40,138 nucleotides of DNA from a virus (taxonomy: Duplodnaviria; Heunggongvirae; Uroviricota; Caudoviricetes). A program made the position numbers and the translations under genes. The notes below the pieces were generated by a model. That model saw only the letters and a list, made by a program, of their open reading frames with translations. It was not told the origin of the DNA and searched no databases. Of the stretch, positions 19,798 to 32,977 are shown piece after piece. The stretch is taken from the IMG/VR virus record IMGVR_UViG_2896601577_000009. The stretch is one strand, 5' to 3'. Every line of letters starts with the position of its first letter. Positions within the stretch are counted from its first letter, which is position 1.

Positions 19798-19921
19798 AAA
19801 AAGAACAAATGGTAGTGTCCGCTATTGCCAGTACACCTCAGCTGTCCGATTATCTGATGGAAACTGCCGGAAACGTACCGGATAAGTTGCAGCCGAATAA
19901 AGATAAGTAACGTAGTACGCT

Positions 19922-20203
19922 ATGACTGAATCCGAAATACTGCGATTAATCCGCCGTGCTTGTGGAATCAGCAAGCAGCATGACGAACAGGCCACGCAGC
20001 CGGACAGCGTGACCGCAGATAATTATGTGCGTGTAGTGGCTGAGGTGATGCGCCGTGACGGTATTGAGCTTAACGGCGTGGATATGCGCAACATACGAAC
20101 AAGAGTCCTTGAGTTGCTGGCATATCGTCGCCGTTCTCAACAACGGAGGGAGAGCGCGAAAAATACTTACCAGTGGAAGAAGCCGGAACGATTGCGGCGG
20201 TAA
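19922..20203 (+). CDS. Hypothetical protein (93 aa)
   Basis: MTESEILRLIRRACGISKQHDEQATQPDSVTADNYVRVVAEVMRRDGIELNGVDMRNIRTRVLELLAYRRRSQQ...; balanced composition, no recognised motif. A short in-frame gene tail ending ...NVPDKLQPNKDK precedes it directly after the IS600 end. Confidence 0.3.
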   Translation: MTESEILRLIRRACGISKQHDEQATQPDSVTADNYVRVVAEVMRRDGIELNGVDMRNIRTRVLELLAYRRRSQQRRESAKNTYQWKKPERLRR

Positions 20204-20217
20204 CTTGCTGATATTCC

Positions 20218-20600
20218 CGATAACGCAAAATTGCGCTGGCTGACTTGTTGCATTGCAAAAAGTTAAGCAGGAAGGCACGGCCTGTAAGATGGGATGCAGT
20301 AAGTAGTTCAAGGCTACCTTGTGCTGGCACGCACAGTTAAGCCGTCGGTGCTGGATATCCCCCACTGGGGGAAAAGCTGGCTACATCCCTCACATCTGAG
20401 GACTGATAACGCGACATTGCGCTGGCTGGCAAAGTGCAAAATTGCACGATGGCCTAACCCATTGATTATTTCGAAAACCTGCAATGCAGGAAATCGGGGA
20501 AGTAAGCCTAAGCTATTGATTGTTTCGAAACCCCCCATTGGGGGATGTCGGGAAAGTAAGACTAACCCATTGATTCTTCCACAATCCTCAATTTGAGGAG
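20218..20600. repeat. Array of imperfect direct repeats, each carrying a different short palindrome
   Basis: A box GATAACGC(A/G)A(A/C)ATTGCGCTGGCTG occurs at about 20218 and 20401. Three ~54-bp units (about 20460-20620) share ATTGATT-TTTCGAAA-CC / palindrome / -TCGGG-AAGTAAG-CTAA. The palindromes differ between units with compensatory changes: TTGCATTGCAA, CCCCCACTGGGGG, CCTCACATCTGAGG, GTGCAAAATTGCAC, CCTGCAATGCAGG, CCCCCCATTGGGGG, CCTCAATTTGAGG. Confidence 0.6.
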
Positions 20601-21005
20601 GCCGGAACGTCTACATAGCTGCATCGCCGTAATGATGATTCAGCCCACCAGCCAAATCAGCACAGCAACGACAGAATAGCCCGACACAGAAAAACCACGA
20701 ATATGGGGTTTTTGTTATGACATGGTCATGATGACCACTCATACAAAACAGGTAAAGCCCACCAGCCTGATTAAAAAAGCCTGGTATCCAATCTCGATAT
20801 GGGGATCCCTATATCGACATTAACGCCCACTAAAACTGTGCATATATGCATAGAAAAAGCATCCACCAGCTTTATGACGGATGCCGCTCATCTTATAAAT
20901 AATCGTGTATTGCAGTGTGTATTGCGACTCCTTTAAACGATAGGTCTGAGCATTCGTAATGTACTGTTTTTAAATTTTATTTTTTCCTGTCTTTTCATAA
21001 AGGCG

Positions 21006-21779
21006 ATGTATGCAGCGACGATTGAAAGTGACCTTGATACCGAAAAGGCCTTTGAATATATCGCCGGTGCGCCGCAGGGGCAGAAGGATAATCCGCTTAT
21101 TAATATTCTGGATAAGTTCTCCACCTGGTATGACACGAATAGCGTGATGCTGGGCGGTGTCAAAATTCCGCACCTTTTCCCCGGTGATGATCTGAAACTT
21201 CAGACCGCGCAGGATTCAGACAATGGATTTTCGGCGCTTGAACAGGCGCTGCTGCGGTATATCGCCGCCGGTCTTGGCGTTTCCTACGAACAGTTGTCCC
21301 GTGATTACTCGAAGGTCAGTTACTCAAGTGCCCGCGCATCCGCCAATGAGTCGTGGCGCTATTTTATGGGGCGGCGAAAATTTATTGCGTCCCGGCTGGC
21401 CACGCAGATGTTTTCCTGCTGGCTGGAAGAGGCACTTCTTCGGGGGATTATTCGTCCGCCACGGGCACGGTTTGATTTTTATCAGGCGCGATCAGCCTGG
21501 TCACGGGCTGAGTGGATTGGAGCCGGAAGAATGGCCATTGACGGGCTCAAGGAGGTTCAGGAATCAGTGATGCGCATTGAGGCCGGACTGAGCACGTATG
21601 AGAAAGAGCTGGCGCTGATGGGCGAGGATTATCAGGACATTTTCTGCCAGCAGGTCAGGGAATCTGCAGAGCGGGAAAAAGCCGGACTCTCACGTCCGGT
21701 GTGGATAGCGCAGGCGTATCAGCAGCAGATAGCGGAGAGTCGCAGGCCGGAAGAGGAGACAACACCACGTGAGACGTAA
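21006..21779 (+). pseudogene. B: Portal protein (lambda B-like), C-terminal half only
   Basis: 257-aa ORF matching the C-terminal region of lambda-type portal proteins. Upstream is AT-rich non-coding DNA, so the N-terminal half is absent. Confidence 0.75.
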
Positions 21780-23274
21780 TCTTTCACACATTATTGCAGC
21801 AGCATTCAATGAACCGCTGCTTCTGGAGCCCGCCTATGCGCGGGTTTTCTTTTGCGCGCTGGGGCGCGAGATGGGGGCAGCAAGTCTTTCGGTACCGCAA
21901 CAGCAGGTACAGCTTGATGCTCCCGGGATGCTGGCTGAAACGGACGAGTACATGGCCGGAGGTAAACGACCGGCCCGTGTTTACCGGGTGGTGAACGGTA
22001 TTGCGGTACTGCCGGTGACCGGCACGCTGGTGCACCGGCTGGGGGGGATGCGGCCATTTTCCGGAATGACTGGCTATGACGGCATTGTCACCTGTCTTCA
22101 GCAGGCAATGGCAGATAGCCAGGTGCGGGGCATACTGCTGGACATTGACAGTCCGGGCGGGCAGGCCGCCGGCGTGTTTGACTGCGCTGACATGATTTAC
22201 CGCCTCCGGCAGCAGAAGCCGGTCTGGGCACTGTGTAATGACACGGCCTGTTCTGCGGCCATGCTGCTGGCGTCGGCCTGCTCCCGACGGCTGGTTACCC
22301 AGACATCCCGTATCGGTTCCATTGGCGTGATGATGAGCCATGTCAGCTATGCCGGTCATCTGGCGCAGGCCGGTGTGGATATCACGCTGATTTACTCAGG
22401 GGCGCACAAGGTGGATGGCAATCAGTTTGAAGCGTTGCCGGCAGAGGTTCGCCAGGACATGCAGCAGCGGATTGATGCGGCGCGCCGGATGTTTGCCGAA
22501 AAAGTGGCGATGTTTACCGGTCTGTCTGTTGATGCAGTCACGGGAACAGAGGCCGCTGTTTTTGAAGGTCAGTCCGGCATTGAGGCCGGGCTGGCGGATG
22601 AATTAATCAATGCGTCGGATGCCATCAGTGTGATGGCCACGGCGCTGAACAGTAATGTCAGAGGAGGCACTATGCCGCAATTAACTGCAACGGAAGCCGC
22701 CGTGCAGGAGAACCAGCGAGTGATGGGGATCCTGACATGCCAGGAAGCGAAAGGACGTGAACAGCTTGCCACGATGCTGGCAGGGCAACAGGGCATGAGC
22801 GTTGAACAGGCCCGGGCGATTCTGGCCGCGGCGGCACCGCAGCAGCCGGTGGCATCCGCGCAGAGTGAAGCCGATCGCATTATGGCGTGTGAAGAAGCGA
22901 ACGGTCGTGAACAACTGGCGGCAACGCTGGCGGCGATGCCGGAGATGACGGTGGAAAAAGCCCGCCCGATCCTGGCGGCTGCACCACTGGCGGATGCCGG
23001 GCCCTCACTTCGTGATCAGATCATGGCCCTGGATGAGGCAAAAGGGGCAGAAGCGCAGGCTGAAAAACTGGCGGCCTGCCCGGGAATGACCGTGGAGAAC
23101 GCCCGGGCGGTGCTGGCTGCGGGATCAGGTAAGGCCGAACCGGTCTCTGCATCCACAACCGCCCTGTTTGAACATTTCATGGCGAATCATTCACCGGCAG
23201 CGGTGCGGGGTGGCGTGTCACAGACGTCAGCAGACGGTGATGCGGACGTGAAAATGCTCATGGCCATGCCATGA
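21769..23274 (+). CDS. C: Head maturation protease/scaffold (lambda C with nested Nu3-like region; S49/ClpP-type peptidase)
   Basis: 501 aa with a peptidase core (...GILLDIDSPGGQAAG...) and a C-terminus built of repeated Ala-rich scaffold-like segments. Confidence 0.85.
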   Translation: MRRNLSHIIAAAFNEPLLLEPAYARVFFCALGREMGAASLSVPQQQVQLDAPGMLAETDEYMAGGKRPARVYRVVNGIAVLPVTGTLVHRLGGMRPFSGMTGYDGIVTCLQQAMADSQVRGILLDIDSPGGQAAGVFDCADMIYRLRQQKPVWALCNDTACSAAMLLASACSRRLVTQTSRIGSIGVMMSHVSYAGHLAQAGVDITLIYSGAHKVDGNQFEALPAEVRQDMQQRIDAARRMFAEKVAMFTGLSVDAVTGTEAAVFEGQSGIEAGLADELINASDAISVMATALNSNVRGGTMPQLTATEAAVQENQRVMGILTCQEAKGREQLATMLAGQQGMSVEQARAILAAAAPQQPVASAQSEADRIMACEEANGREQLAATLAAMPEMTVEKARPILAAAPLADAGPSLRDQIMALDEAKGAEAQAEKLAACPGMTVENARAVLAAGSGKAEPVSASTTALFEHFMANHSPAAVRGGVSQTSADGDADVKMLMAMP

Positions 23275-23310
23275 AGTCAGTGCTGACCATCAATATGAGG
23301 TTTTAACAAA

Positions 23311-23658
23311 ATGGTGACGAAAACCATCACTGAACAGCGTGCGGAAGTACGTATTTTTGCCGGTAATGATCCGGCTCACACCGCCACAGGCAGCAGCGGG
23401 ATTTCCTCGGCAACACCGGCTCTGACGCCCCTGATGCTGGATGAAGCCACCGGGAAACTGGTGGTCTGGGATGGACAGAAAGCCGGTAGTGCGGTTGGCA
23501 TACTGGTACTGCCGCTTGAAGGCACAGAGACGGTGCTGACCTATTACAAGTCGGGGACCTTTGCGACGGAGGCAATCCGCTGGCCTGACAGTGTGGATGA
23601 ACACAAAAAGGCAAATGCCTTTGCCGGCACAGCCCTGAGTCACGCGGCGCTGCCGTAA
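23311..23658 (+). CDS. D: Head decoration protein (lambda D-like)
   Basis: 115 aa, ...DPAHTATGSSGISSATPALTPLMLDEATGKLVVWDG...YYKSGTF..., closely resembling lambda gpD. Confidence 0.85.
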   Translation: MVTKTITEQRAEVRIFAGNDPAHTATGSSGISSATPALTPLMLDEATGKLVVWDGQKAGSAVGILVLPLEGTETVLTYYKSGTFATEAIRWPDSVDEHKKANAFAGTALSHAALP

Positions 23659-23715
23659 CACGTTATCAGGCCACCATGGTGGCCTGACTGATTTCTGAAT
23701 GAAAGGAACTGATTT

Positions 23716-24744
23716 ATGGGATTGTTTACGACCCGCCAGTTACTCGGTTATACCGAACAAAAAGTGAAATTCCGTGCGCTGTTTCTGGAGCTGTTTTTCC
23801 GCCGTACGGTGAATTTCCACACCGAAGAGGTGATGCTGGACAAAATTACCGGAAAAACGCCGGTGGCGGCCTATGTCTCCCCGATCGTTGAAGGAAAAGT
23901 GCTTCGCCATCGCGGTGGTGAAACCCGCGTGTTACGTCCGGGCTACGTCAAGCCGAAACACGAATTTAATTACCAGCAGGCGGTTGAGCGCCTTCCTGGT
24001 GAAGATCCGGCTCAGCTGAACGACCCGGCCTACCGTCGTCTGCGTATCATTACCGATAACCTCAAACAGGAAGAGCACGCCATTGTCCAGGTGGAAGAAA
24101 TGCAGGCGGTGAATGCCGTGCTGTATGGCAAATACACCATGGAAGGGGATCAGTTTGATACTGTCGAGGTGGATTTCGGGCGCTCTGAAGGAAATAACAT
24201 TGAGCAGGCTGACGGTAAAAAATGGTCTGAGCAGGACCGTGATACGTTTGATCCGACGCATGATATTGACCTCTACTGCGATCAGGCCAGCGGCCTTGTG
24301 AATATCGCCATTATGGACGGTACGGTCTGGCGTCTGCTGAATGGCTTTAAGCTGTTCCGCGAAAAACTGGATACCCGTCGCGGCTCAAATTCACAACTCG
24401 AAACGGCAGTGAAAGACCTGGGGGCGGTGGTGTCCTTCAAGGGGTATTACGGCGATCTGGCCATTGTGGTGGCGAAAACGTCTTATGTGGCAGAGGACGG
24501 TACCGAAAAACGTTATCTGCCGGAGGGCACACTGGTCCTGGGGAATACGGCAGCAGAGGGCATTCGTTGCTATGGTGCCATTCAGGATGCGCAGGCGTTG
24601 TCCGAAGGTGTGGTGGCCTCTTCCCGTTATCCGAAACACTGGCTGACTGTGGGCGATCCGGCCCGTGAATTCACCATGACGCAGTCCGCACCGCTGATGG
24701 TGCTGCCGGATCCGGATGAGTTTGTGGTGGTACAGGTGAAATAA
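23716..24744 (+). CDS. E: Major capsid protein (lambda E-like)
   Basis: 342 aa, ...YVSPIVEGKVLRHRGGE...PGYVKPKHEFN...DPAYRR...KLDTRRGSNS...AVKDLG..., with lambda gpE signature regions. Confidence 0.9.
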   Translation: MGLFTTRQLLGYTEQKVKFRALFLELFFRRTVNFHTEEVMLDKITGKTPVAAYVSPIVEGKVLRHRGGETRVLRPGYVKPKHEFNYQQAVERLPGEDPAQLNDPAYRRLRIITDNLKQEEHAIVQVEEMQAVNAVLYGKYTMEGDQFDTVEVDFGRSEGNNIEQADGKKWSEQDRDTFDPTHDIDLYCDQASGLVNIAIMDGTVWRLLNGFKLFREKLDTRRGSNSQLETAVKDLGAVVSFKGYYGDLAIVVAKTSYVAEDGTEKRYLPEGTLVLGNTAAEGIRCYGAIQDAQALSEGVVASSRYPKHWLTVGDPAREFTMTQSAPLMVLPDPDEFVVVQVK

Positions 24745-24795
24745 TCCGTGAGCGGGGGCGAAATGCCCCCGTGTCTTTTTTCACAGGAGGCTGAG

Positions 24796-25179
24796 ATGGC
24801 AACAAAAGAAGAAAATCTGAATCGTCTTCGTCAACTGGCTGGCCTGCTGGGGCGCGAGGCGGATATGTCGGGGAGTGCTGCGGATATTGCTCAACGTGTG
24901 TCTGAGTGGGAAGAGGAGCTTGCTGTTTCCCCGGAGGGCATTATGCACTCTGATGAGAGCGGGGCTGATCAAAATCACACAGACGATGGTGAGCAGTTGA
25001 ACAACACGGATGCTACGGATGATGTTAAAGCGGTCCGTGTGCGGAAATGCCTGCATGTGATGGGGTATTGCCCGGAGACAGGCCGTCCCGTTGAACTGAC
25101 GTACCGGGGCATGCGTGTTATGGTGCCATCACCACTGGCGACAGCCATGATACAGCACGGAACGGCTGAGCATGCGTGA
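24796..25179 (+). CDS. DNA packaging protein FI-like
   Basis: Position between E and FII; acidic 127-aa product starting MATKEENLNRLRQ with RBS AGGAGG upstream. Confidence 0.65.
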   Translation: MATKEENLNRLRQLAGLLGREADMSGSAADIAQRVSEWEEELAVSPEGIMHSDESGADQNHTDDGEQLNNTDATDDVKAVRVRKCLHVMGYCPETGRPVELTYRGMRVMVPSPLATAMIQHGTAEHA

Positions 25180-25525
25180 TTTTCAGAATGCCTTTGATGC
25201 TGCCCTTGCCGGGGTGGACAGCACGATTGTTGAAGTGATGGGGCTCTGTGCGCAGTTCACCTCGGGAGCACAGCGTGGAAGCGAAGTTCAGGGGGTTTTT
25301 GACGATCCGGAGTCGCTGGGTTTTGCCGGTGGCGGGGTCCGTATTGAAGGAAGCAGCCCGTCATTATTTGTGCGGACGGATACGGTGCGTGCCGTGCGGC
25401 GTGGTGACACGCTGACCATTAACGGCGAGATGTTCTGGGTGGATCGTATTTCTCCGGATGACGGGGGAAGCTGTTATCTCTGGCTCAACCGTGGGCAACC
25501 ACCCGCTGTTAACCGGCGACGATAA
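25172..25525 (+). CDS. Head-tail connector (lambda FII-like)
   Basis: 117 aa, ...GVFDDPESLGFAGGGVRIEGSSPSLFVRTD...RRGDTLTI...FWVDR.SPDDGGSC.LWL.RG.PPAVNRRR, as in lambda gpFII. Confidence 0.85.
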   Translation: MRDFQNAFDAALAGVDSTIVEVMGLCAQFTSGAQRGSEVQGVFDDPESLGFAGGGVRIEGSSPSLFVRTDTVRAVRRGDTLTINGEMFWVDRISPDDGGSCYLWLNRGQPPAVNRRR

Positions 25526-25540
25526 ACGCAGGGTGAAATT

Positions 25541-26116
25541 ATGGCGATAAAAGGGCTTGATCAGGCGATTGATAATCTGAGCCGGGTTCGTAAAAACGCC
25601 ATTCCGGCGGCTTCAGCAATGACGATTAACCGCGTGGCCACAACGGCGATTAATCAGTCTTCGTCACAGGTTGCCCGGGAAACCAGGGTGAGACGGAAAC
25701 TGGTAAAGGAACGGTCCAGACTGAAACGGGCGACGGTCAGAAATCCGAATGCCAGAATTATCGTTAACCGCGGTGATCTCCCTGTGATTAAGTTGGGGAT
25801 CAGAATGCTGGGACGTCGTCCGAACAGCATACTCAAAGCCGGTCAGCATCGTTATCAGCGGGCATTTATCCAGCGATTAAATAATGGGCGCTGGCATGTT
25901 ATGCAACGTCTTCCCCAGGCCAGATATGAGGAGGGCAATGACGACAAGGGAAGGAAAAAGCGTAATCGCCTTCCCATTCAGGTGGTGAAAATCCCGATGG
26001 CGGCCCCACTGAAACAGGCATTTGATGAGAATGTTGACCGTATCCGGCGTGAACGCCTGCCTAAAGAACTGGCATACGCGCTGAAACAACAACTGAGGAT
26101 TGCGATAAAACGATGA
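25541..26116 (+). CDS. Z: Tail completion protein (lambda Z-like)
   Basis: 191 aa, position and length as lambda gpZ. Confidence 0.8.
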   Translation: MAIKGLDQAIDNLSRVRKNAIPAASAMTINRVATTAINQSSSQVARETRVRRKLVKERSRLKRATVRNPNARIIVNRGDLPVIKLGIRMLGRRPNSILKAGQHRYQRAFIQRLNNGRWHVMQRLPQARYEEGNDDKGRKKRNRLPIQVVKIPMAAPLKQAFDENVDRIRRERLPKELAYALKQQLRIAIKR

Positions 26117-26508
26117 AACACACTGACATTCGTGCCGCAGTGCTGGATGCACTCGAGCAGCATGAACACGGGGCGACGCTGTTTGATGGTCGCCCCGTTG
26201 TTTTTGACGAAGAGGATTTTCCTGCGATCGCGGTTTATCTGACGGATGCAGAGTATACCGGTGAAGAGCTGGATGCAGATACCTGGCGGGCCACGCTGCA
26301 TATTGAGGTGTTTTTACCGGCACAGGTACCGGATTCAGAGCTTGATCAGTGGATGGAAAGCCGGATTTACCCGGCGATGACTGCGATCCCGGCACTGGCA
26401 GGACTGATTACCACGATGGTTACGCAGGGCTATGAGTATCGTCGTGATGACGATATGGCGTTATGGAGTTCTGCAGATCTGACTTATTCCATTACATACG
26501 AGATGTGA
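26113..26508 (+). CDS. U: Tail terminator protein (lambda U-like)
   Basis: 131 aa, position and length as lambda gpU. Confidence 0.8.
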
Positions 26509-26515
26509 GGACGAT

Positions 26516-27268
26516 ATGGCAACACCAAATCCCCTTGAGCCGGTAAAAGGTGCCGGTACCACTCTGTGGGTTTACAACGGCAAGGGTGATGCTTATGCAA
26601 ACCCGTTGTCAGACGATGACTGGCAGCGACTGGCTAAGGTGAAGGATCTGACGCCGGGCGAGATGACGGCAGAATCCTACGATGATAACTACCTGGATGA
26701 TGAAGACGCGGACTGGAACGCGACCGGGCAGGGGCAGAAATCTGCAGGTGATACCAGTTTTACGCTGGCCTGGAAACCGGGAGAGGAAGGCCAGAAAGGG
26801 CTTATAGGCTGGTTTGAAAGCGGCGATGTCCGGGCCTATAAAATCCGTTTTCCGAATGGCACGGTGGATGTGTTTCGTGGCTGGGTCAGCAGTATCGGTA
26901 AGGCCGTGACGGCGAAAGAAGTGATCACCCGCACGGTGAAAGTCACTAACGTGGGTAAACCTTCTGTAGCGGAAGAACGCAGCAAAATTACGCCGGTCAG
27001 TGCGATTAAGGTGACGCCGACATCCGGTACGGTGGCAAAAGGGAAAACAACCACCCTGACGGTTTCTTTTGAGCCGGAAAGTGCAACCGACAAGACGTTC
27101 AGAGCGGTTTCCGCCGATCCGTCGAAAGCCACCATTAGTGTGAAAGATATGACAATTACGGTAAACGGCGTGGCGACAGGTAAGGTGCAGATCCTTGTGG
27201 TGAGCGGAAATGGTCAGTTCGCCGCAGTGGCTGAAGTCACCGTTACTGAAGCGGGCGCTGCAGGGTAA
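26516..27268 (+). CDS. V: Major tail protein (lambda V-like) with C-terminal Ig-like domain
   Basis: 250 aa, [20 protein letters not shown]..., C-terminal Big_2-like region. Confidence 0.85.
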
Positions 27269-27281
27269 ACGGAGGTAATAC

Positions 27282-27675
27282 ATGTTTCTGAAAACAGAAC
27301 AATTTGAATATAACGGTGTGTCTGTCACGCTTTCCGAATTGTCTGCGCTGCAGCGGTTTGATTATATAAAGTTTGTTTCAGACGCAGAACAACAGGAGAC
27401 AACGAAGCATGATGTCGTGCACATTAACCAGCGATATCTGGAAACGGCATCCCTGCTTGTGGCGATGTCGCTATGGCATACCCATTCCCTCAAAGGCACT
27501 CTGGCCTCTCCGGAGACAGAGATGCAGCAGATCCGCCGTGAAGTGATGCTGGGATGGCCTGCTGATGCACTGAATCAGGCAACGAACCGGGTGCTTTATC
27601 TTTCAGGTATGCTGGATAACCGGCACGATGCCGATCCTGAACAAACCGGGAAAGCAGAAGCGACTGAGCCGGTAA
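27282..27675 (+). CDS. G: Tail assembly chaperone G-like; reading frame inconsistent with the downstream slippery site (possible frameshift lesion)
   Basis: N-terminus MFLKTEQFEYNGVSVTLSELSALQR is G-like. A lambda-type slippery heptamer G-GGA-AAG at 27648-27654 is followed by a stop 6 codons later (27673-27675), but it lies in the +1 frame relative to the G start; the start frame itself stays open to 27905. Confidence 0.45.
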
Positions 27676-27699
27676 CTTGTCCTGAAACTGGCGCGAGAG

Positions 27700-28113
27700 A
27701 TGGGGAGACCCGACTGGCGCGCCATGCTTGCCGGGATGACATCCACCGAATATGCCGACTGGCGACGTTTTTACTGCACGCATTATTTTCAGGATACCCA
27801 ACTGGACGCTCATTTTTCCGGGCTGATGTACGCCGTACTCAGCCTGTTTTTTGGCGATCCGGATATGCATCCGGCGGATTTCAGTCTGCTTGCTCCAGCG
27901 TGTGAGGAAGAGCAGACGGAGATGCCGGACGAGGAAGAAATGCTGATGCAGAAAGCGACAGGAGTTGCCGGAGGCGTCCGGTTCGGAGGGGACGGAGGGC
28001 GCGATATTTCACCTTCTGCGAATGTGGTGGATGTCAGCGAGGATGATGTTGCATTAATGATGGCTTCAGCGGGGATTTCCGGAGGTGTGAGATATGTCCC
28101 AGCCAGCGGGTGA
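27700..28113 (+). CDS. T: Tail assembly protein T-like region (normally expressed as a G-T fusion by -1 frameshifting)
   Basis: ...PDWRAMLAGMTSTEYADWRRFY...LSLFFGDPDMHP...GGVRFG... is T-like, but in a frame that does not fit a simple -1 slip from the heptamer. A GGGG run at 27702-27705 is a plausible indel site. Confidence 0.5.
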   Translation: MGRPDWRAMLAGMTSTEYADWRRFYCTHYFQDTQLDAHFSGLMYAVLSLFFGDPDMHPADFSLLAPACEEEQTEMPDEEEMLMQKATGVAGGVRFGGDGGRDISPSANVVDVSEDDVALMMASAGISGGVRYVPASG

Positions 28114-30706
28114 TCTGGTTATTGATTTGAGTCTGGATGCGGCCCGGTTTGATGAACAGATGGCCCGGGTACGCCGTCATTTTTCCAGTCTGGAGGCGGA
28201 TGCCAGAAAAACCGCCAGTACTGTTGAACAGGGGCTGAGCCGACAGGCGCTGGCTGCACAAAAAGCCGGGATATCAGTCGGACAGTATAAGGCTGCCATG
28301 CGCACACTGCCCGCACAGTTCACGGATATTGTCACTCAGCTTGCCGGTGGTCAGAATCCCTTCCTTATCATGCTGCAGCAGGGGGGGCAGATCAGCGATT
28401 CATTCGGTGAACCGCTCAGCCTGCTTACCCTGCTGAAGGAGGAACTTCTCGGGATCAGGGATGCCTCTGAATCATCAGAGGAGTCGCTGTCAGATACGGC
28501 AAATGCACTGGCTGAAAATGCCCGGAATGCCGGTGAGCTGGGACGATTTATGTCGGTGGTCCGTGTGGCGGCAGGTGGCGGGGTTGCCGTACTGGCCGTG
28601 CTTGCTGCCGCCGCCTGGCAGGCAGAGCAGGCTGACCGGGCCTTATTGCGTTCACTGATCCTGACCGGAGGGGCGGCTGCCACCACAACGGCAGAATTGT
28701 GGAAAATGGCCGGGGTGATCAGCGATGAAGCCGGTGGTGGTATCAGACAGGCGGCAGAAAATCTGGCCCGTCTGGCAGAAAGCGGGAAATATACCGCCGG
28801 GCAGCTACGGATCATGGGGGAAACCTCTCAGAGATGGCTGCAGACGGTGGGGGACGATGCCGGGAAGGTGGAAAAAGCCTTTGAAGGGATTGCAGCAGAT
28901 CCGGTGAAGGCGCTGGCCTCCCTGAATCAGCAGTATAACTTCCTGAGCGTTTCCCAGTTACGCCATATTGATGAGCTTGAGCGCACGAAAGGTAAACAGG
29001 CTGCGGTGACGGAGGCGATGTCCCTGTTTGCGGATGTCATGAATGCACGTCTGGAGCAACTTGATAAAGCGGCCACGCCGGTGGAAAAAATCTGGGACGA
29101 TGTTAAAACCTGGACTTCTGACGCATGGGCATGGATAGGTGATCATACACTGGGGGCACTCAGTCTGATCACTGACGTGGTGGCCGGAACCGTTGAACAG
29201 GTGAAGCTGCTGCTTGTGCAGGGGGATCTGGCACTGGCTGAATTTATTCAGTCAGCCTGGGAAACGACAAAGAATGTGCCCGGCGTTGGTGCGTTGTTTG
29301 GTGAACTGGCAGAAGAGAACCGCGTATTTATTGAGAAAACAAAACGCGATGAACTGGCGCTGAGAAAATCCATTGCGGAACGGGATGCGCGTATACGCCA
29401 GGGGGAAATGGGGTACATCAACCGCTCGCGTGCAACAGGCGTCAGCAAAGGTCTTGGGCAGCAGGAAGCCGTCAGCCGTCTGGCTGAAGAGCTGACAGGT
29501 AAAAAGCATACATCACCGAAAACGCGCTCTGCCGGGGAGAGGGAAGAGGAGCAGGCAAGAGAGGCTCTGCTTGCCCTTGAAGCTGAGCTCAGGACGCTGG
29601 AAAAACACAGCGGTGCGAATGAGAAAATCAGCCGGCAGCGCCGTGATTTATGGAAGGCGGAAAGTCAGTATGCGGTCCTGAAAGAGGCTGCCACGAAACG
29701 GCAGTTATCCTGGCAGGAAAAATCCCTGCTGGCTCATGAGAAAGAGACGCTGGAGTACAAACGCCAGCTGGCTGAGCTGGGAGACAAGATTGAACACCAG
29801 AAGCGGCTGAATGAGCTGGCACAGCAGGCGGCGCGGTTTGAACAGCAGCAGAGCGCGAAGCAGGCGGCAATCAGCGCAAAAGCCCGCGGACTCACCGACC
29901 GTCAGGCGCAGCGGGAGTCGGAAGAGCAGCGCCTTCGTGAGGTGTACGGTGATAATCCGGCTGCGCTGGCGAAGGCCACATCTGCACTGAAGAACACCTG
30001 GTCTGCGGAGGAGCAGCTTCGTGGAAGCTGGATGGCCGGGATGAAGTCCGGCTGGGGCGAGTGGGCGGAAAGTGCGACGGACAGTTTTTCGCAGGTAAAA
30101 AGTGTGGCCACGCAGACCTTTGACGGTATTGCACAGAATATGGCGGCGATGCTGACCGGCAGCGAACAGAACTGGCGTGGTTTCACCCGTTCCGTGCTCT
30201 CCATGCTGACAGAGATTTTTCTGAAGCAGGCGATGGTGGGGATTGTCGGGCGTATCGGCAGCGCCATTGGTGGTGCTTTCGGTGGTGGCGCATCCGCTTC
30301 CACGGGGACGGCCATTCAGGCTGCGGCGGCGAACTTCCATTTCGCGACCGGAGGATTTACGGGGACGGGCGGCAAATATGAGCCTGCGGGGATTGTCCAT
30401 CGCGGGGAGTTTGTCTTCACGAAGGAGGCGACCAGCCGGATTGGTGTCGGCAACCTGTATCGTCTGATGCGCGGGTATGCGGAAGGTGGTTATGTCGGCG
30501 GTGCCGGAAGTCCGGCGCAGATGCGGCGGGCCGAAGGCATTAATTTTAATCAGAACAATCACGTGGTGATTCAGAACGACGGCCCCAACGGGCAGGCAGG
30601 GCCGCAGCTGATGAAAGCGGTGTATGAGATGGCCCGTAAAGGTGCGCAGGATGAGCTCCGGCTGCAGTTGCGTGATGGCGGTCTGTTATCGGGGAGCGGG
30701 CGATGA
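28094..30706 (+). CDS. H: Tail tape measure protein (lambda H-like)
   Basis: 870 aa; N-terminus MSQPAGDLVIDLSLDAARFDEQMARVRRHF and C-terminal half (...QRRDLWKAESQ...GGFTGTGGKYEPAGIVHRGEFVFTKEATSRIGVGNLYRLMRGYA...) match lambda gpH. Confidence 0.9.
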   Translation: MSQPAGDLVIDLSLDAARFDEQMARVRRHFSSLEADARKTASTVEQGLSRQALAAQKAGISVGQYKAAMRTLPAQFTDIVTQLAGGQNPFLIMLQQGGQISDSFGEPLSLLTLLKEELLGIRDASESSEESLSDTANALAENARNAGELGRFMSVVRVAAGGGVAVLAVLAAAAWQAEQADRALLRSLILTGGAAATTTAELWKMAGVISDEAGGGIRQAAENLARLAESGKYTAGQLRIMGETSQRWLQTVGDDAGKVEKAFEGIAADPVKALASLNQQYNFLSVSQLRHIDELERTKGKQAAVTEAMSLFADVMNARLEQLDKAATPVEKIWDDVKTWTSDAWAWIGDHTLGALSLITDVVAGTVEQVKLLLVQGDLALAEFIQSAWETTKNVPGVGALFGELAEENRVFIEKTKRDELALRKSIAERDARIRQGEMGYINRSRATGVSKGLGQQEAVSRLAEELTGKKHTSPKTRSAGEREEEQAREALLALEAELRTLEKHSGANEKISRQRRDLWKAESQYAVLKEAATKRQLSWQEKSLLAHEKETLEYKRQLAELGDKIEHQKRLNELAQQAARFEQQQSAKQAAISAKARGLTDRQAQRESEEQRLREVYGDNPAALAKATSALKNTWSAEEQLRGSWMAGMKSGWGEWAESATDSFSQVKSVATQTFDGIAQNMAAMLTGSEQNWRGFTRSVLSMLTEIFLKQAMVGIVGRIGSAIGGAFGGGASASTGTAIQAAAANFHFATGGFTGTGGKYEPAGIVHRGEFVFTKEATSRIGVGNLYRLMRGYAEGGYVGGAGSPAQMRRAEGINFNQNNHVVIQNDGPNGQAGPQLMKAVYEMARKGAQDELRLQLRDGGLLSGSGR

Positions 30707-31032
30707 AAACCTTTCGCTGGAAAGTGAAACCGGATATGGAGGTGAACTCGCGGCCATCGGTGCGTGAAGTGCGTTTTGGTGACGGCTATTCGCAGCGTAT
30801 GGCGGCAGGGCTGAGTGCTGACCTGAAAACATACCGGGTGACGCTTTCCGTGACCCGGGAGGAAGCCCGGCATCTGGAGGAATTCCTGGCAGAGCACGGT
30901 GGCTGGAAGGCGTTTCTGTGGACACCGCCTTATGCATACCGGCAGATAAAGGTGACCTGTGCCGGGTGGTCTGCGCGGGTCGGGATGTTGCGCGTTGAGT
31001 TCAGCGCGGAGTTTAAGCAGGTGGTGAACTGA
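30703..31032 (+). CDS. M: Minor tail protein M
   Basis: 109 aa, same size and position as lambda gpM. Confidence 0.85.
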   Translation: MKTFRWKVKPDMEVNSRPSVREVRFGDGYSQRMAAGLSADLKTYRVTLSVTREEARHLEEFLAEHGGWKAFLWTPPYAYRQIKVTCAGWSARVGMLRVEFSAEFKQVVN

Positions 31033-31730
31033 TGCAGGATATTCGCGAAGAAAGGCTGAACGAGTCGGTTAAGTCAGAGCAGTCACCGCGGGTGGTACTC
31101 TGGGAAATCGACCTGACGGTGCAGGGTGGTGAGCGGTATTTTTTCTGTAATGAGCTGAATGAAAAAGGGGAGCCGGTCACCTGGCAGGGGCGTAAGTATG
31201 AGGCATACCCGATTGACGGCAGCGGCTTTGAGATGAACGGCCGGGGCAGCAGTGCCAGACCGTCGCTGACGGTGTCCAATCTGTTCGGTCTGGTCACCGG
31301 GATGGCGGAAGACCTGCAGAGTCTGGTGGGGGCCACGGTGGTCCGCCGCCGGGTGTATGCCCGTTTTCTGGATGCGGTGAATTTCGTTGCGGGCAATCCG
31401 GAGGCGGACCCGGAGCAGGAGCTGAGTGACCGCTGGGTGGTGGAGCAGATGTCGCAGCTGACAGCCATGACGGCCTCGTTTGTGCTGGCTACACCGACCG
31501 AGACGGACGGGGCGCTGTTTCCCGGTCGTATCATGCTGGCGAACACCTGTATGTGGACCTACCGCTCTGATGAGTGTGGTTACACGGGCGGGGCTGTGGC
31601 GGATGAGTTCGATAAACCCACCACGGATATCCGTAAGGACAGATGCAGCAAGTGCATGCGCGGGTGTGAACTGCGCAGGAATGTCGGCAATTTTGGCGGT
31701 TTCCTTTCCATTAATAAACTTTCGCAGTAA
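31032..31730 (+). CDS. L: Minor tail protein L
   Basis: 232 aa with a C-terminal Cys cluster, as lambda gpL. Confidence 0.85.
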   Translation: MQDIREERLNESVKSEQSPRVVLWEIDLTVQGGERYFFCNELNEKGEPVTWQGRKYEAYPIDGSGFEMNGRGSSARPSLTVSNLFGLVTGMAEDLQSLVGATVVRRRVYARFLDAVNFVAGNPEADPEQELSDRWVVEQMSQLTAMTASFVLATPTETDGALFPGRIMLANTCMWTYRSDECGYTGGAVADEFDKPTTDIRKDRCSKCMRGCELRRNVGNFGGFLSINKLSQ

Positions 31731-31740
31731 ATCCCGGTTT

Positions 31741-32490
31741 ATGACACAGACTGAATCAGCGATTCTGGCGCATGCCCGGCGGTGTGCGCCTGCGGAGTCG
31801 TGCGGCTTCGTGATAAGCACGCCGGAGGGGGAGCGGTATATCCCTTGTGTGAATATTTCTGCAGAGCCGGAGGCGTATTTTCGTATCGCACCGGAAGACT
31901 GGCTGCGGGCAGAGATGCAGGGGGAGATTGTGGCACTGGTCCACAGTCATCCCGGTGAGCTGCCCTGGCTGAGCGAGGCTGACCGGCGGCTGCAGATAAA
32001 AAGCGCACTGCCCTGGTGGCTGGTCTGCCGGGGGGAAATTCATAAATTCCGCTGTGTGCCACATCTGACAGGACGGCGCTTTGAGCACGGGGTGACGGAC
32101 TGTTACACGCTGTTCCGGGATGCATACCATCTGGCGGGAATTGATATGCCGGATTTTCATCGCGAGGATGACTGGTGGCGCAACGGCCAGAACCTGTACC
32201 TGGACAATATGGCGGTCACCGGCTTTTACCGGGTGCCCCTGTCCTCTGCACAGCCGGGCGATATTCTGCTGTGCTGCTTTGGTGCTTCGGTACCGAACCA
32301 TGCCACCATTTACTGCGGCAACGGTGAGCTGCTTCACCATCTGCCTTCACGGGGATTTGCAACGATTTGGCCGCCGCCTCAGCCTGTATGTGAACACGGC
32401 AGCGGAAGCCATTCGCGCCCTGTCGATGCAGATGCCGGGCTTTCGCCGTCAGATGAACGAAGGCTGGTACCAGATACGTATTGCCGGTGA
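31741..32490 (+). CDS. K: Tail assembly protein K (NlpC/P60-JAB-like), apparently extended at the C-terminus
   Basis: MTQTESAILAHARRCAPAESCGFV...HSHP... is K-like. The ORF is about 250 aa versus about 199 in lambda and overlaps the I start. Confidence 0.65.
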   Translation: MTQTESAILAHARRCAPAESCGFVISTPEGERYIPCVNISAEPEAYFRIAPEDWLRAEMQGEIVALVHSHPGELPWLSEADRRLQIKSALPWWLVCRGEIHKFRCVPHLTGRRFEHGVTDCYTLFRDAYHLAGIDMPDFHREDDWWRNGQNLYLDNMAVTGFYRVPLSSAQPGDILLCCFGASVPNHATIYCGNGELLHHLPSRGFATIWPPPQPVCEHGSGSHSRPVDADAGLSPSDERRLVPDTYCR

Positions 32491-32977
32491 TGACACGGCA
32501 CCGGAGGCGGTGTATGCCCGTCTTCACGAACAGCTGGGTGAGGGAACGGTCATCCACATTGTGCCGCGACTGGCCGGGGCCGGAAAGGGTGGACTGCAGA
32601 TTGTGTTGGGGGCGGCAGCCATCGTGGGCTCTTTCTTCACTGCCGGGGCATCAATGGCGTTATGGGGTTCAGCCCTGGCAGCCGGTGGTTTTTCTGCCAC
32701 CACGATGCTGTTTTCACTTGGAGCCAGCATGATTCTGGGCGGTGTGGCCCAGATGCTGGCCCCGAAGGCAAAAACACCGGATTACCGCGCAACGGATAAC
32801 GGCAGACAGAACACGTACTTTTCCTCGCTGGATAACATGATTGCCCAGGGGAACCCGATGCCGGTGCCTTACGGGGAAATGCTGGTTGGCTCCCGCCGTA
32901 TATCCCAGGACATCAGCACCCGTGATGAAGGCGGGGCGGAAAGGTCGTGGTTATCGGGCGACAGGGATAAAACATAA
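32300..32977 (+). CDS. I: Tail assembly protein I
   Basis: ...GDLQRFGRR...AAEAIRAL...GWYQ.RIAG...IHIVPR.AGA..GG.QIVLGAAAI.GSFFTAGA...LFSLGASM.LGGVAQMLAPKA...NTYFSSLDNM.AQGN..PV.YGEM.VGSR..SQ.IST.DEG as in lambda gpI. Start codon choice uncertain. Confidence 0.7.
   Translation: MPPFTAATVSCFTICLHGDLQRFGRRLSLYVNTAAEAIRALSMQMPGFRRQMNEGWYQIRIAGDDTAPEAVYARLHEQLGEGTVIHIVPRLAGAGKGGLQIVLGAAAIVGSFFTAGASMALWGSALAAGGFSATTMLFSLGASMILGGVAQMLAPKAKTPDYRATDNGRQNTYFSSLDNMIAQGNPMPVPYGEMLVGSRRISQDISTRDEGGAERSWLSGDRDKT

Follow-up and report, generated by a model that had tools for sequence, protein, structure and literature searches.

The satellite P4 reads regulators of its helper through cox boxes at the late promoter and through Ogr/Delta sites. 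The datA locus of Escherichia coli, with its DnaA boxes and a site for integration host factor (IHF), and incA of P1, with its RepA iterons, are titration loci. The Roi protein of phage HK022, studied by Clerget and Boccard in 1996, is said to bind a site within its own gene that lies beside an IHF site, and to be stabilised there by IHF. Here we describe a non-coding array of short palindromes in IMG/VR virus record IMGVR_UViG_2896601577_000009 (40,138 nucleotides; "the window" means this full stretch, and all coordinates are window positions). The array forms the tail of a phage-inducible chromosomal island (PICI). We give a probability of roughly 55%, judging from sequence comparisons, to the reading that it is a multi-specific set of putative IHF-assisted binding sites for the Rha and Roi proteins of helper phages, which would serve as a sensor or a sponge. 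The simplest account is that of a cis-acting DNA element, which satellites of E. coli and Shigella took over from phage genes and have maintained.

In these hosts, PICIs contribute greatly to gene transfer and to interference with phages; as to how Gram-negative PICIs read or manipulate their helpers, a 2018 paper in the ISME Journal calls the activator unidentified. The class of satellites termed helper-embedded PICIs and their insertion in prophage late genes are already published (Tommasini, Mageeney and Williams, PMC10111431), in a paper that covers only the att motif and cos. The Rha proteins of phi80 and P22 are detrimental to phage growth when IHF is lacking, and rha is regulated by IHF (PMC4936722). 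Moreover, a note in the phi80 record states that Rha inhibits DNA synthesis in IHF-deficient hosts. In the searchable literature we found no description of the array, of its palindromes, or of Rha or Roi in connection with satellites.

Results

The array consists of palindromes in phase with IHF sites

The array extends from 20199 to 20613 and contains ten short palindromes, compared to a chance expectation of 1.7. When the arms had to measure 5 nt or more and the centre no more than 4 nt, 1000 dinucleotide shuffles yielded 1.7 ± 1.2 and at most 5; with arms of at least 6 nt, there are five, compared to 0.29 expected from such shuffles. The palindrome density is the highest found anywhere in the 40-kb window. 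All seven palindromes listed in a preliminary description of this DNA are present at their sites, and so is the recurring box, GATAACGC..ATTGCGCTGGCTG, whose two copies at 20219 and 20405 are 92% identical. The box itself holds two palindromes beyond these seven. It is one more unit of the same family, with a palindrome (CGCAAAATTGCG) and an IHF-like site (TAACTTGCTGATA) of its own. The latter overlaps the stop codon of the upstream open reading frame (ORF), and the start of the array was therefore placed at approximately 20199.

Three head-to-tail 54-nt units, which are in register, span 20452-20613. Identity between the flanks of the repeats is 61-78%, a 13-nt palindrome forms the variable part, and the palindrome geometry in the array is 6+1+6; overall, the palindromes paired with an IHF site are 12-15 bp long. 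The conserved flank contains, on the minus strand, a perfect IHF site, AATCAATGGGTTA, which matches the consensus WATCAANNNNTTR. From the centre of the palindrome to the first base of the IHF site the distance is exactly 29 nt in tandem units 1 to 3, and 28.5 nt in unit 0, the first copy of the box. The whole window contains six matches to the IHF consensus, half of which fall within the 162 nt of the tandem units. A scan of the array region for promoters and terminators gave nothing above the shuffle expectation.

To analyse the arms, 23 related units from the window and other loci were aligned. Six arm pairs are complementary in 97.8% of the cells, a count underlain by few independent events. 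Three of these pairs (positions 3-5) vary on both sides, and shuffled alignments and slid registers fall far short of this. Compensatory changes had been ascribed to stems of the same type. They are found between three types, CCTGCA, CCCCCA and CCTCAA, and within one type the centre alone varies.

The units derive from phage roi and rha genes

Matches to the units in phage records are confined to genes annotated as roi, antirepressor or DNA-binding protein, and they are always on the minus strand, with one unit apiece. Unit 1 is identical in 36 of 41 positions to nt 128-168 of the CP-1639/HK022-type roi gene (minus strand), unit 2 in 40 of 45 positions to nt 123-167 of the VT2-Sakai/HK629-type gene, and unit 3 in 43 of 45 positions to nt 122-166 of the JLK-2012/Stx1a-type gene. 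Since all three align to the same nt 122-168 of roi in different alleles, they represent one gene segment from three alleles. In roi this segment lies after the helix-turn-helix and contains the palindrome and, 9 nt on, an IHF consensus.

Among roi alleles the palindrome varies along with the recognition helix. The helix KRHDNVKRTIE is found with CCTCAAATTGAGG, SRHDKVKQSIE with CCCCCAATGGTGG, and both SRHSNVKVSID and SRPDNVKISIE with CCTGCATTGCAG(G). In 80 further roi loci encoding KRHDNVKRTIE the palindrome is always of the first type, except for two variants, each seen at one locus and differing by a single substitution. In Stx2a phages, a Roi-like gene adjacent to cro combines the helix SQHKDVKRSIE with CGCCAATGGCG, and another type of array unit matches this cro-adjacent gene.

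The palindrome of the box type, (A)CGCAAnnTTGCG(T), resides inside the rha gene of the prophage type that hosts the satellite, where 19 nt are identical to arrays. It is also present in the rha genes of phi80 and of the P13374 type (21 nt identical in P13374). Unit 0 shares 16-19 nt with phi80 and DLP12-type rha, and box-type units overall share 16-21 nt with their source genes. The Roi and Rha source proteins all match Pfam Phage_pRha. In the clearest cases, the copy in the array is more symmetric than the phage original: CCCCCATTGGGGG of unit 2 is a perfect palindrome, compared to the imperfect CCCCCAATGGTGG in roi, and the arms of rha-type array units are one base pair longer than in the phage gene.

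We also surveyed eleven rha genes from phages of Aeromonas, Pantoea, Pseudomonas, Salmonella and E. coli (L310-L317, L090, L190 and L309). In nine of them, including those of phi80, the DLP12 type and P13374, the best palindrome is centred on the R-N-F codons. Five genes have 9 of 10 pairs matching, compared to an average of 4-5 pairs elsewhere in the same genes. The outer arms vary with compensation (AGCC..GGCT, GCA..TGC, AACG..CGTT, CGTCTC..GAGACG and GTCA..TTAC). In P22-type rha the palindrome is followed by a perfect IHF consensus, with the spacing seen in the array units, and the 46-kb genome of phi80 contains its own palindrome exactly once, inside rha. The palindromes are best explained as allele-specific sites in lambdoid Rha-family genes: roi (nin region), rha (late region) and the Rha-like genes adjacent to cro. 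The site reportedly footprinted with HK022 Roi would then presumably be the CTGCATTGCAG palindrome.

Because the units stem from coding sequence and their 54 nt make up 18 codons, an ORF of 74 codons crosses the tandem units on the minus strand (20314-20538). It is not annotated as a gene in RefSeq, and the reading frame is not kept in other arrays.

Related arrays are found at the ends of other satellites

Related arrays are located at the ends of many E. coli satellites, among them an O157:H7 satellite adjacent to clpS, islands that occupy the dinD site, and EcCICFT073. They are found at 27 loci of the viral collection and in 1236 of 5426 complete E. coli genomes. None of the phage records contains an array, and none holds more than one unit. 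The 21 arrays examined for this yielded 44 distinct units, of which 32 have a perfect palindrome beginning 23-26 nt after the start of the unit, with at least nine types of half-site. Unit number and composition vary between satellites, which carry 3-9 non-coding sites, and the palindrome spacing elsewhere is not a multiple of three (43 nt in L006). Relative to the satellite genes, the units are antisense to roi and rha in the window, L001, L004, L005 and EcCICFT073. At the dinD site, arrays are found in both orientations relative to the island genes. One dinD island (L318, E. coli SCU-123), which encodes an integrase, AntA-AntB, ash and DUF5906, has its array inverted with respect to its genes, and its last unit reaches further into the roi homology, to the K-N-G-V-I-R codons.

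In EcCICFT073 (E. coli CFT073, L308:2550-3880; array at about 1388650-1388880 of NC_004431) the array directly follows a homologue of orf93, the 93-amino-acid ORF that is the last gene of the satellite in the window and occupies the same position there. The array lies downstream of cos2, an inverted site that immediately precedes the orf93 homologue. The array carries the palindromes TTCGCCAGCGGCGAA, TCCCCCATTGGGGGA and TTTCCACCATTGGTGGAAA, the latter two being symmetric versions of the asymmetric VT2-Sakai roi site. When array type was compared with the resident rha or roi allele, which was done for two genomes only, the two agreed in one and disagreed in the other, a result that carries no weight either way.

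Putative sites for helper regulators

Of the two readings offered in the preliminary description, related protein-binding sites and RNA hairpins, the first is the one that the fixed 29-nt phase between IHF site and palindrome, the 6+1+6 geometry, the origin in Rha-family genes and the occurrence in both orientations point to. A search nearby for a cognate DNA-binding protein had been suggested; the one satellite that is fully covered encodes no Rha-domain protein, and any binder would therefore act in trans.

We propose that a helper or a competing phage makes its Roi or Rha protein, dimers of which would bind the matching palindrome and be stabilised by an IHF-induced bend, as is reported for HK022 Roi, on which this step is modelled. 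With its several palindrome types, a single satellite could interact with regulators from more than one phage lineage. As the consequence, we favour that these regulators are titrated or sensed, an effect that may be amplified by replication of the satellite, because the phage holds a single self-site, because Rha and Roi are growth-inhibitory when misregulated, and because the array is not needed for mobilisation (see below). An essential role of the array in induction or packaging is less likely, and between sponge and sensor we have no strong preference.

A number of points weigh against this proposal. EcCICFT073 is mobilised by lambda and, about 1000 times better, by phi80. To our knowledge lambda has neither rha nor roi, and the palindrome type of phi80 is absent from the EcCICFT073 array; induction and transfer therefore do not depend on the array. 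What the satellite would gain is conjectural, and few independent palindrome types are behind the covariation. Some features of the phage genes could be by-products of coding, since the IHF match in roi coincides with the conserved I-N-x-L-G motif; the core rha palindrome, CGCAATTTTGCG, partly follows from the conserved R-N-F-A codons. Furthermore, a structure search found no solved Rha-domain structure. Finally, no phage source was found for the GTGCAA palindrome of the stretch 20405-20451, which stands at the head of the tandem units in 20 further distinct versions of the array (loci selected by a pattern requiring GTGCAA). A viral scan for GTGCAAATTTGCAC gave mostly chance matches and no Rha-like source gene. 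The GTGCAA-plus-IHF pattern had a single, unrelated match in representative genomes; those of other species therefore lack it in its exact form.

A bolder version, which we put forward tentatively, sees in the arrays a rapidly reshuffled, non-coding "operator library" of IHF-assisted sites that was pirated from many rha and roi genes. It would capture the regulators while the satellite amplifies, and would act as a DNA-only, multi-specific device for sensing helpers or disarming competitors. Its corollary, to which the same caution applies, is that members of the Rha family across genera would recognise a palindrome in their own coding sequence.

Alternative explanations

The alternative that survives best, although we consider it unlikely, is that the array is non-functional debris, left by repeated homologous or illegitimate exchange with rha and roi and by subsequent duplication of the fragments. 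The units are unquestionably pieces of coding sequence, the middle of the array is eroded in the window, palindromes are broken in some arrays, the end of a PICI is a dynamic zone (PMC10111431), and the satellite in the window is dead anyway. However, the sole segment ever retained is one of 45-54 nt with palindrome and IHF site, and it was retained from at least six source alleles. Its phase is constant, perfect palindromes persist in the 32 of 44 units mentioned above, and the clearest copies have gained symmetry over the phage genes. Moreover, satellites of unrelated lineages have kept arrays in this same location. When the composite minus-strand translation, which contains stops, was used in a protein search, no phage gene had the site order of the arrays. 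The match to roi covers the first 22 residues only, which rejects a single decayed gene as the origin. Thus, the idea of a degraded coding sequence, raised in the preliminary description, holds as to ancestry in rha and roi, but decay does not account for the same short piece, taken from different alleles, standing in tandem.

We regard as improbable that the array acts as RNA, transcribed as the 3' tail of the late operon and functioning either as antisense to roi and rha mRNA or as structured hairpins. The antisense orientation in the satellites listed above would suit this explanation, as would the lack of a terminator between the last ORF and the array. Compared to shuffles, the hairpins are more stable (z-scores -2.4 and -3.7), and the covariation is compatible with an RNA stem, but equally with a DNA palindrome. 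However, the two strands hardly differ in how well they fold, dinD-site islands carry the array inverted with respect to their genes, and no Rfam family matches. The 16-21 nt that rha-type units share with their source genes are too little for antisense pairing, and symmetrised palindromes are less complementary to the phage mRNA. In addition, a 6+1+6 palindrome makes a poor hairpin loop, and conservation within the unit is strongest in a DNA-binding consensus whose distance to the palindrome is fixed.

There is little to recommend an architectural element, at which IHF of the host or a protein of the satellite bends or compacts the DNA near attR for excision, packaging or insulation. It would explain why the array sits between the last gene and attR, why orf93 often adjoins it, and why the IHF sites are in phase, with a 54-bp spacing that amounts to about five helical turns. 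It fails to account for the descent of the units, evident at the nucleotide level, from regulator genes of phages, and several palindromes per array imply several specificities rather than one satellite protein. The array is also 300-800 bp from the att arm motif, and orf93 is missing from the O157 and dinD-site satellites that bear arrays.

Origin-like iterons, through which helper initiators would replicate the satellite or the satellite would disturb helper DNA synthesis, are very improbable: Rha-domain proteins do occupy the initiator position in Eru6/7/9 Stx phages (PMC8951638) and one unit type matches such a gene, phi80 Rha carries the annotation cited above, and lambda iteron 3 resembles window 20383-20408, but this resemblance is within the shuffle range, the 54-bp spacing compares with about 20-24 bp start-to-start in lambda, and the array is not followed by an AT-rich region for unwinding. 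Moreover, neither roi nor late-region rha encodes an initiator, replication genes of the O/P type are separate from them in HK022 and phi80, and PICI origins lie next to the primase gene.

Known element classes

The array was also compared with known classes of repeats and sites. Clustered regularly interspaced short palindromic repeats (CRISPR) had been rejected in the preliminary description, and rightly so: the flanks diverge as stated above, a palindrome replaces the spacer, and the annotation of L001, an intact copy of the satellite, lists no cas genes. The rejection of tRNA-like elements is likewise upheld. ToxI-like repeats of type III toxin-antitoxin systems do not fit, as the units diverge, no gene lies between the array and attR, and Rfam gives no match. 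Rfam 15, suggested as a check, produced no match at the gathering threshold in the whole window, and the best permissive match in the region has E = 6.2.

A cosN pattern search found no cosN-like match near the array, which excludes a lambda-type cos. In L001, the cosQ/cosN of the satellite precedes terS (it comprises 77 nt, has 89.6% identity with the helper cos and includes GGGCGGCGACCT), and cos1 and cos2 of EcCICFT073 are both upstream of the array. Arm-type sites of the integrase correspond to a doubled TGTATTGC motif approximately 300 bp beyond the array. Repetitive extragenic palindromic (REP) sequences and bacterial interspersed mosaic elements, including the repetitive IHF-binding palindromic form, were rejected, since none of three REP consensus cores matched with up to 2 mismatches. 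Neither is the array a lambda-type origin, given its spacing, the lack of an AT-rich tract and an alignment to lambda ori that does not exceed shuffles, nor the origin of the satellite, which in PICIs adjoins the primase gene.

The array is the tail of a helper-embedded PICI

The array is the attR-proximal, non-coding tail of a helper-embedded PICI within a lambdoid portal gene. The same 1.1 kb, at 98.7% identity, was recovered from 49 complete E. coli genomes in the search of other genomes that had been suggested, and parts of it from about 1500. In L001 the array region constitutes the final 0.8 kb of an 11-kb element, whose genes encode an integrase, AlpA, a Bro-N protein, an Icd-like protein, a primase, SSB, a major capsid protein, a head decoration protein, a second AlpA-like protein, a Nu1-like small terminase and the 93-amino-acid ORF. 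This element sits inside, and is co-oriented with, the portal gene of a lambda/DLP12-like prophage, which is annotated as split. A doubled TGTATTGC, with an 81-bp spacing to the crossover, is the att motif of helper-embedded PICIs (PMC10111431). The gene set of L001 in a split portal gene and the presence of this motif in the window thus identify the class.

In the window, everything to the left of 19841 was removed by an IS3-family element, and the last 1.16 kb of the satellite remain, with the terS end, the 93-amino-acid ORF, the array and attR as survivors (Table 1). Since the satellite is truncated, the array is a relic here. The preliminary description had placed it between IS600 and the truncated prophage; IS600 does not adjoin it, however, as the terS end and the 93-amino-acid ORF of the satellite remnant intervene. 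The IS3-family element is one of three adjacent insertion sequences (14155-19797), the others being of the IS110 and IS66 families. The late genes of the prophage (21040-32850) are only 72-79% identical to those of L001 beyond the shared tail, and the same satellite end is therefore found in portal genes of different lambdoid prophages.

Table 1. Coordinates of the array, its palindromes and neighbouring features in the window
Feature	Position	Strand	Remarks
IS110-family transposase	14155-15330	+	
IS66-family tnpA/tnpB/tnpC	15623-18012	-	
IS3-family orfA/orfB	18641-19797	+	IS600 of the preliminary description; truncates the satellite inside terS
Satellite terS, 3' end (Nu1-like small terminase)	19841-19910	+	L001 homology begins at 19841; L001 terS matches Pfam Phage_Nu1
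93-amino-acid ORF (phrog_1561)	19922-20203	+	last gene of the satellite; stop codon within array unit 0
Array unit 0 (first copy of the box)	20199-20246		IHF-like TAACTTGCTGATA at 20201-20213; rha-gene-type palindrome CGCAAAATTGCG at 20224-20235
Degenerate middle	20248-20404		three palindromes (TTGCATTGCAA, TCCCCCACTGGGGGA, CCTCACATCTGAGG); flanks eroded
Palindrome TTGCATTGCAA	20248-20258		
Palindrome TCCCCCACTGGGGGA	20358-20372		
Palindrome CCTCACATCTGAGG	20388-20401		
Stretch with second copy of the box	20405-20451		imperfect rha-type palindrome CGCGACATTGCG at 20410-20421, then GTGCAAAATTGCAC
Palindrome GTGCAAAATTGCAC	20434-20447		
Tandem unit 1	20452-20505		IHF consensus at 20455-20467; palindrome CCTGCAATGCAGG
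Palindrome CCTGCAATGCAGG	20478-20490		
Tandem unit 2	20506-20559		IHF consensus at 20509-20521; palindrome CCCCCATTGGGGG
Palindrome CCCCCATTGGGGG	20532-20544		
Tandem unit 3	20560-20613		IHF consensus at 20563-20575; palindrome TCCTCAATTTGAGGA
Palindrome TCCTCAATTTGAGGA	20585-20599		
Doubled TGTATTGC att-arm motif	20906-20925	+	crossover near 21000; satellite context, outside the array
Lambda-type portal gene, C-terminal fragment	21006-21779	+	TIGR01539 positions 242-457

The interval between the array and the att motif (20620-20900) contains CCACCAGCC three times (20645, 20759 and 20863), the palindromes TGGTCATGATGACCA (20723-20737), CGATATGGGGATCCCTATATCG (about 20795-20816) and TGCATATATGCA (20839-20850), and a terminator-like hairpin on the minus strand (20885-20858). 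Motifs related to those of this interval are present on both flanks of the array in the O157 satellite (L005).

Discussion

The interest of the locus lies in the family of arrays that it reveals rather than in the relic copy of the window. Roughly one in four complete E. coli genomes has an array, as does the model satellite EcCICFT073, which makes its role directly testable with existing strains. It provides a concrete candidate target site for Rha and Roi, a very common phage protein family whose function has been obscure since the IHF-mutant phenotypes of the 1980s. If the sites do act as decoys, this would be a mechanism of defence or hijacking that consists of DNA alone.

The closest counterpart of an array unit is the phage self-site. 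Unit 1 copies the segment of HK022/CP-1639-type roi that contains, in HK022, the palindrome CTGCATTGCAG and about 9 nt later the IHF consensus, and P22-type rha has the same layout. A phage has one such site, which lies in a coding gene and is meant for its own protein (phi80 has exactly one), whereas satellites have 3-9 non-coding sites in tandem, with several specificities.

Lambda ori resembles the array in that palindromic sites for a winged-helix protein lie inside the protein's own gene, and its half-sites are superficially alike (ATCCCTCA and TGGGGGAT). It differs in having four adjacent 18-bp iterons and an AT-rich region, and nothing links roi or rha to an initiator. Window positions 20383-20408 (ACATCCCTCACATCTGAGGACTGATA) and lambda 39075-39100 (ACATCCCTCAAATTGGGGGATTGCTA; L307) agree in 20 of 26 positions, a score within the shuffle range, and the palindrome of JLK-type roi also resembles lambda iteron 3.

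The cos and cosB sites of PICIs, such as cos1 and cos2 of EcCICFT073, which are recognised by Rpp-TerS, are likewise non-coding cis elements in a late or terminal zone, and lambda cosB uses an IHF site. Unlike the array, however, cosQ/cosN is found upstream of terS, cos1 and cos2 of EcCICFT073 precede the array, and the array contains no cosN-like sequence.

With P4 the array shares the principle that a satellite carries sites, here putative ones, for a regulator made by its helper. The P4 sites, in contrast, precede a defined promoter and are meant for a single helper protein, whereas the array has no adjacent promoter, is found at the downstream end of the element in either orientation, and has several specificities. 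Like datA and incA, the array is a cluster of sites that may soak up or inactivate a DNA-binding protein and not control a neighbouring gene, with the assistance of IHF as in datA. These loci, however, titrate one protein of the same replicon, and the presumed ligands of the array are foreign phage proteins of several specificities. Sites for helper proteins and titration loci are thus both known kinds of element; what would be new is a multi-specific array that was pirated from inside the regulator genes of the helpers.

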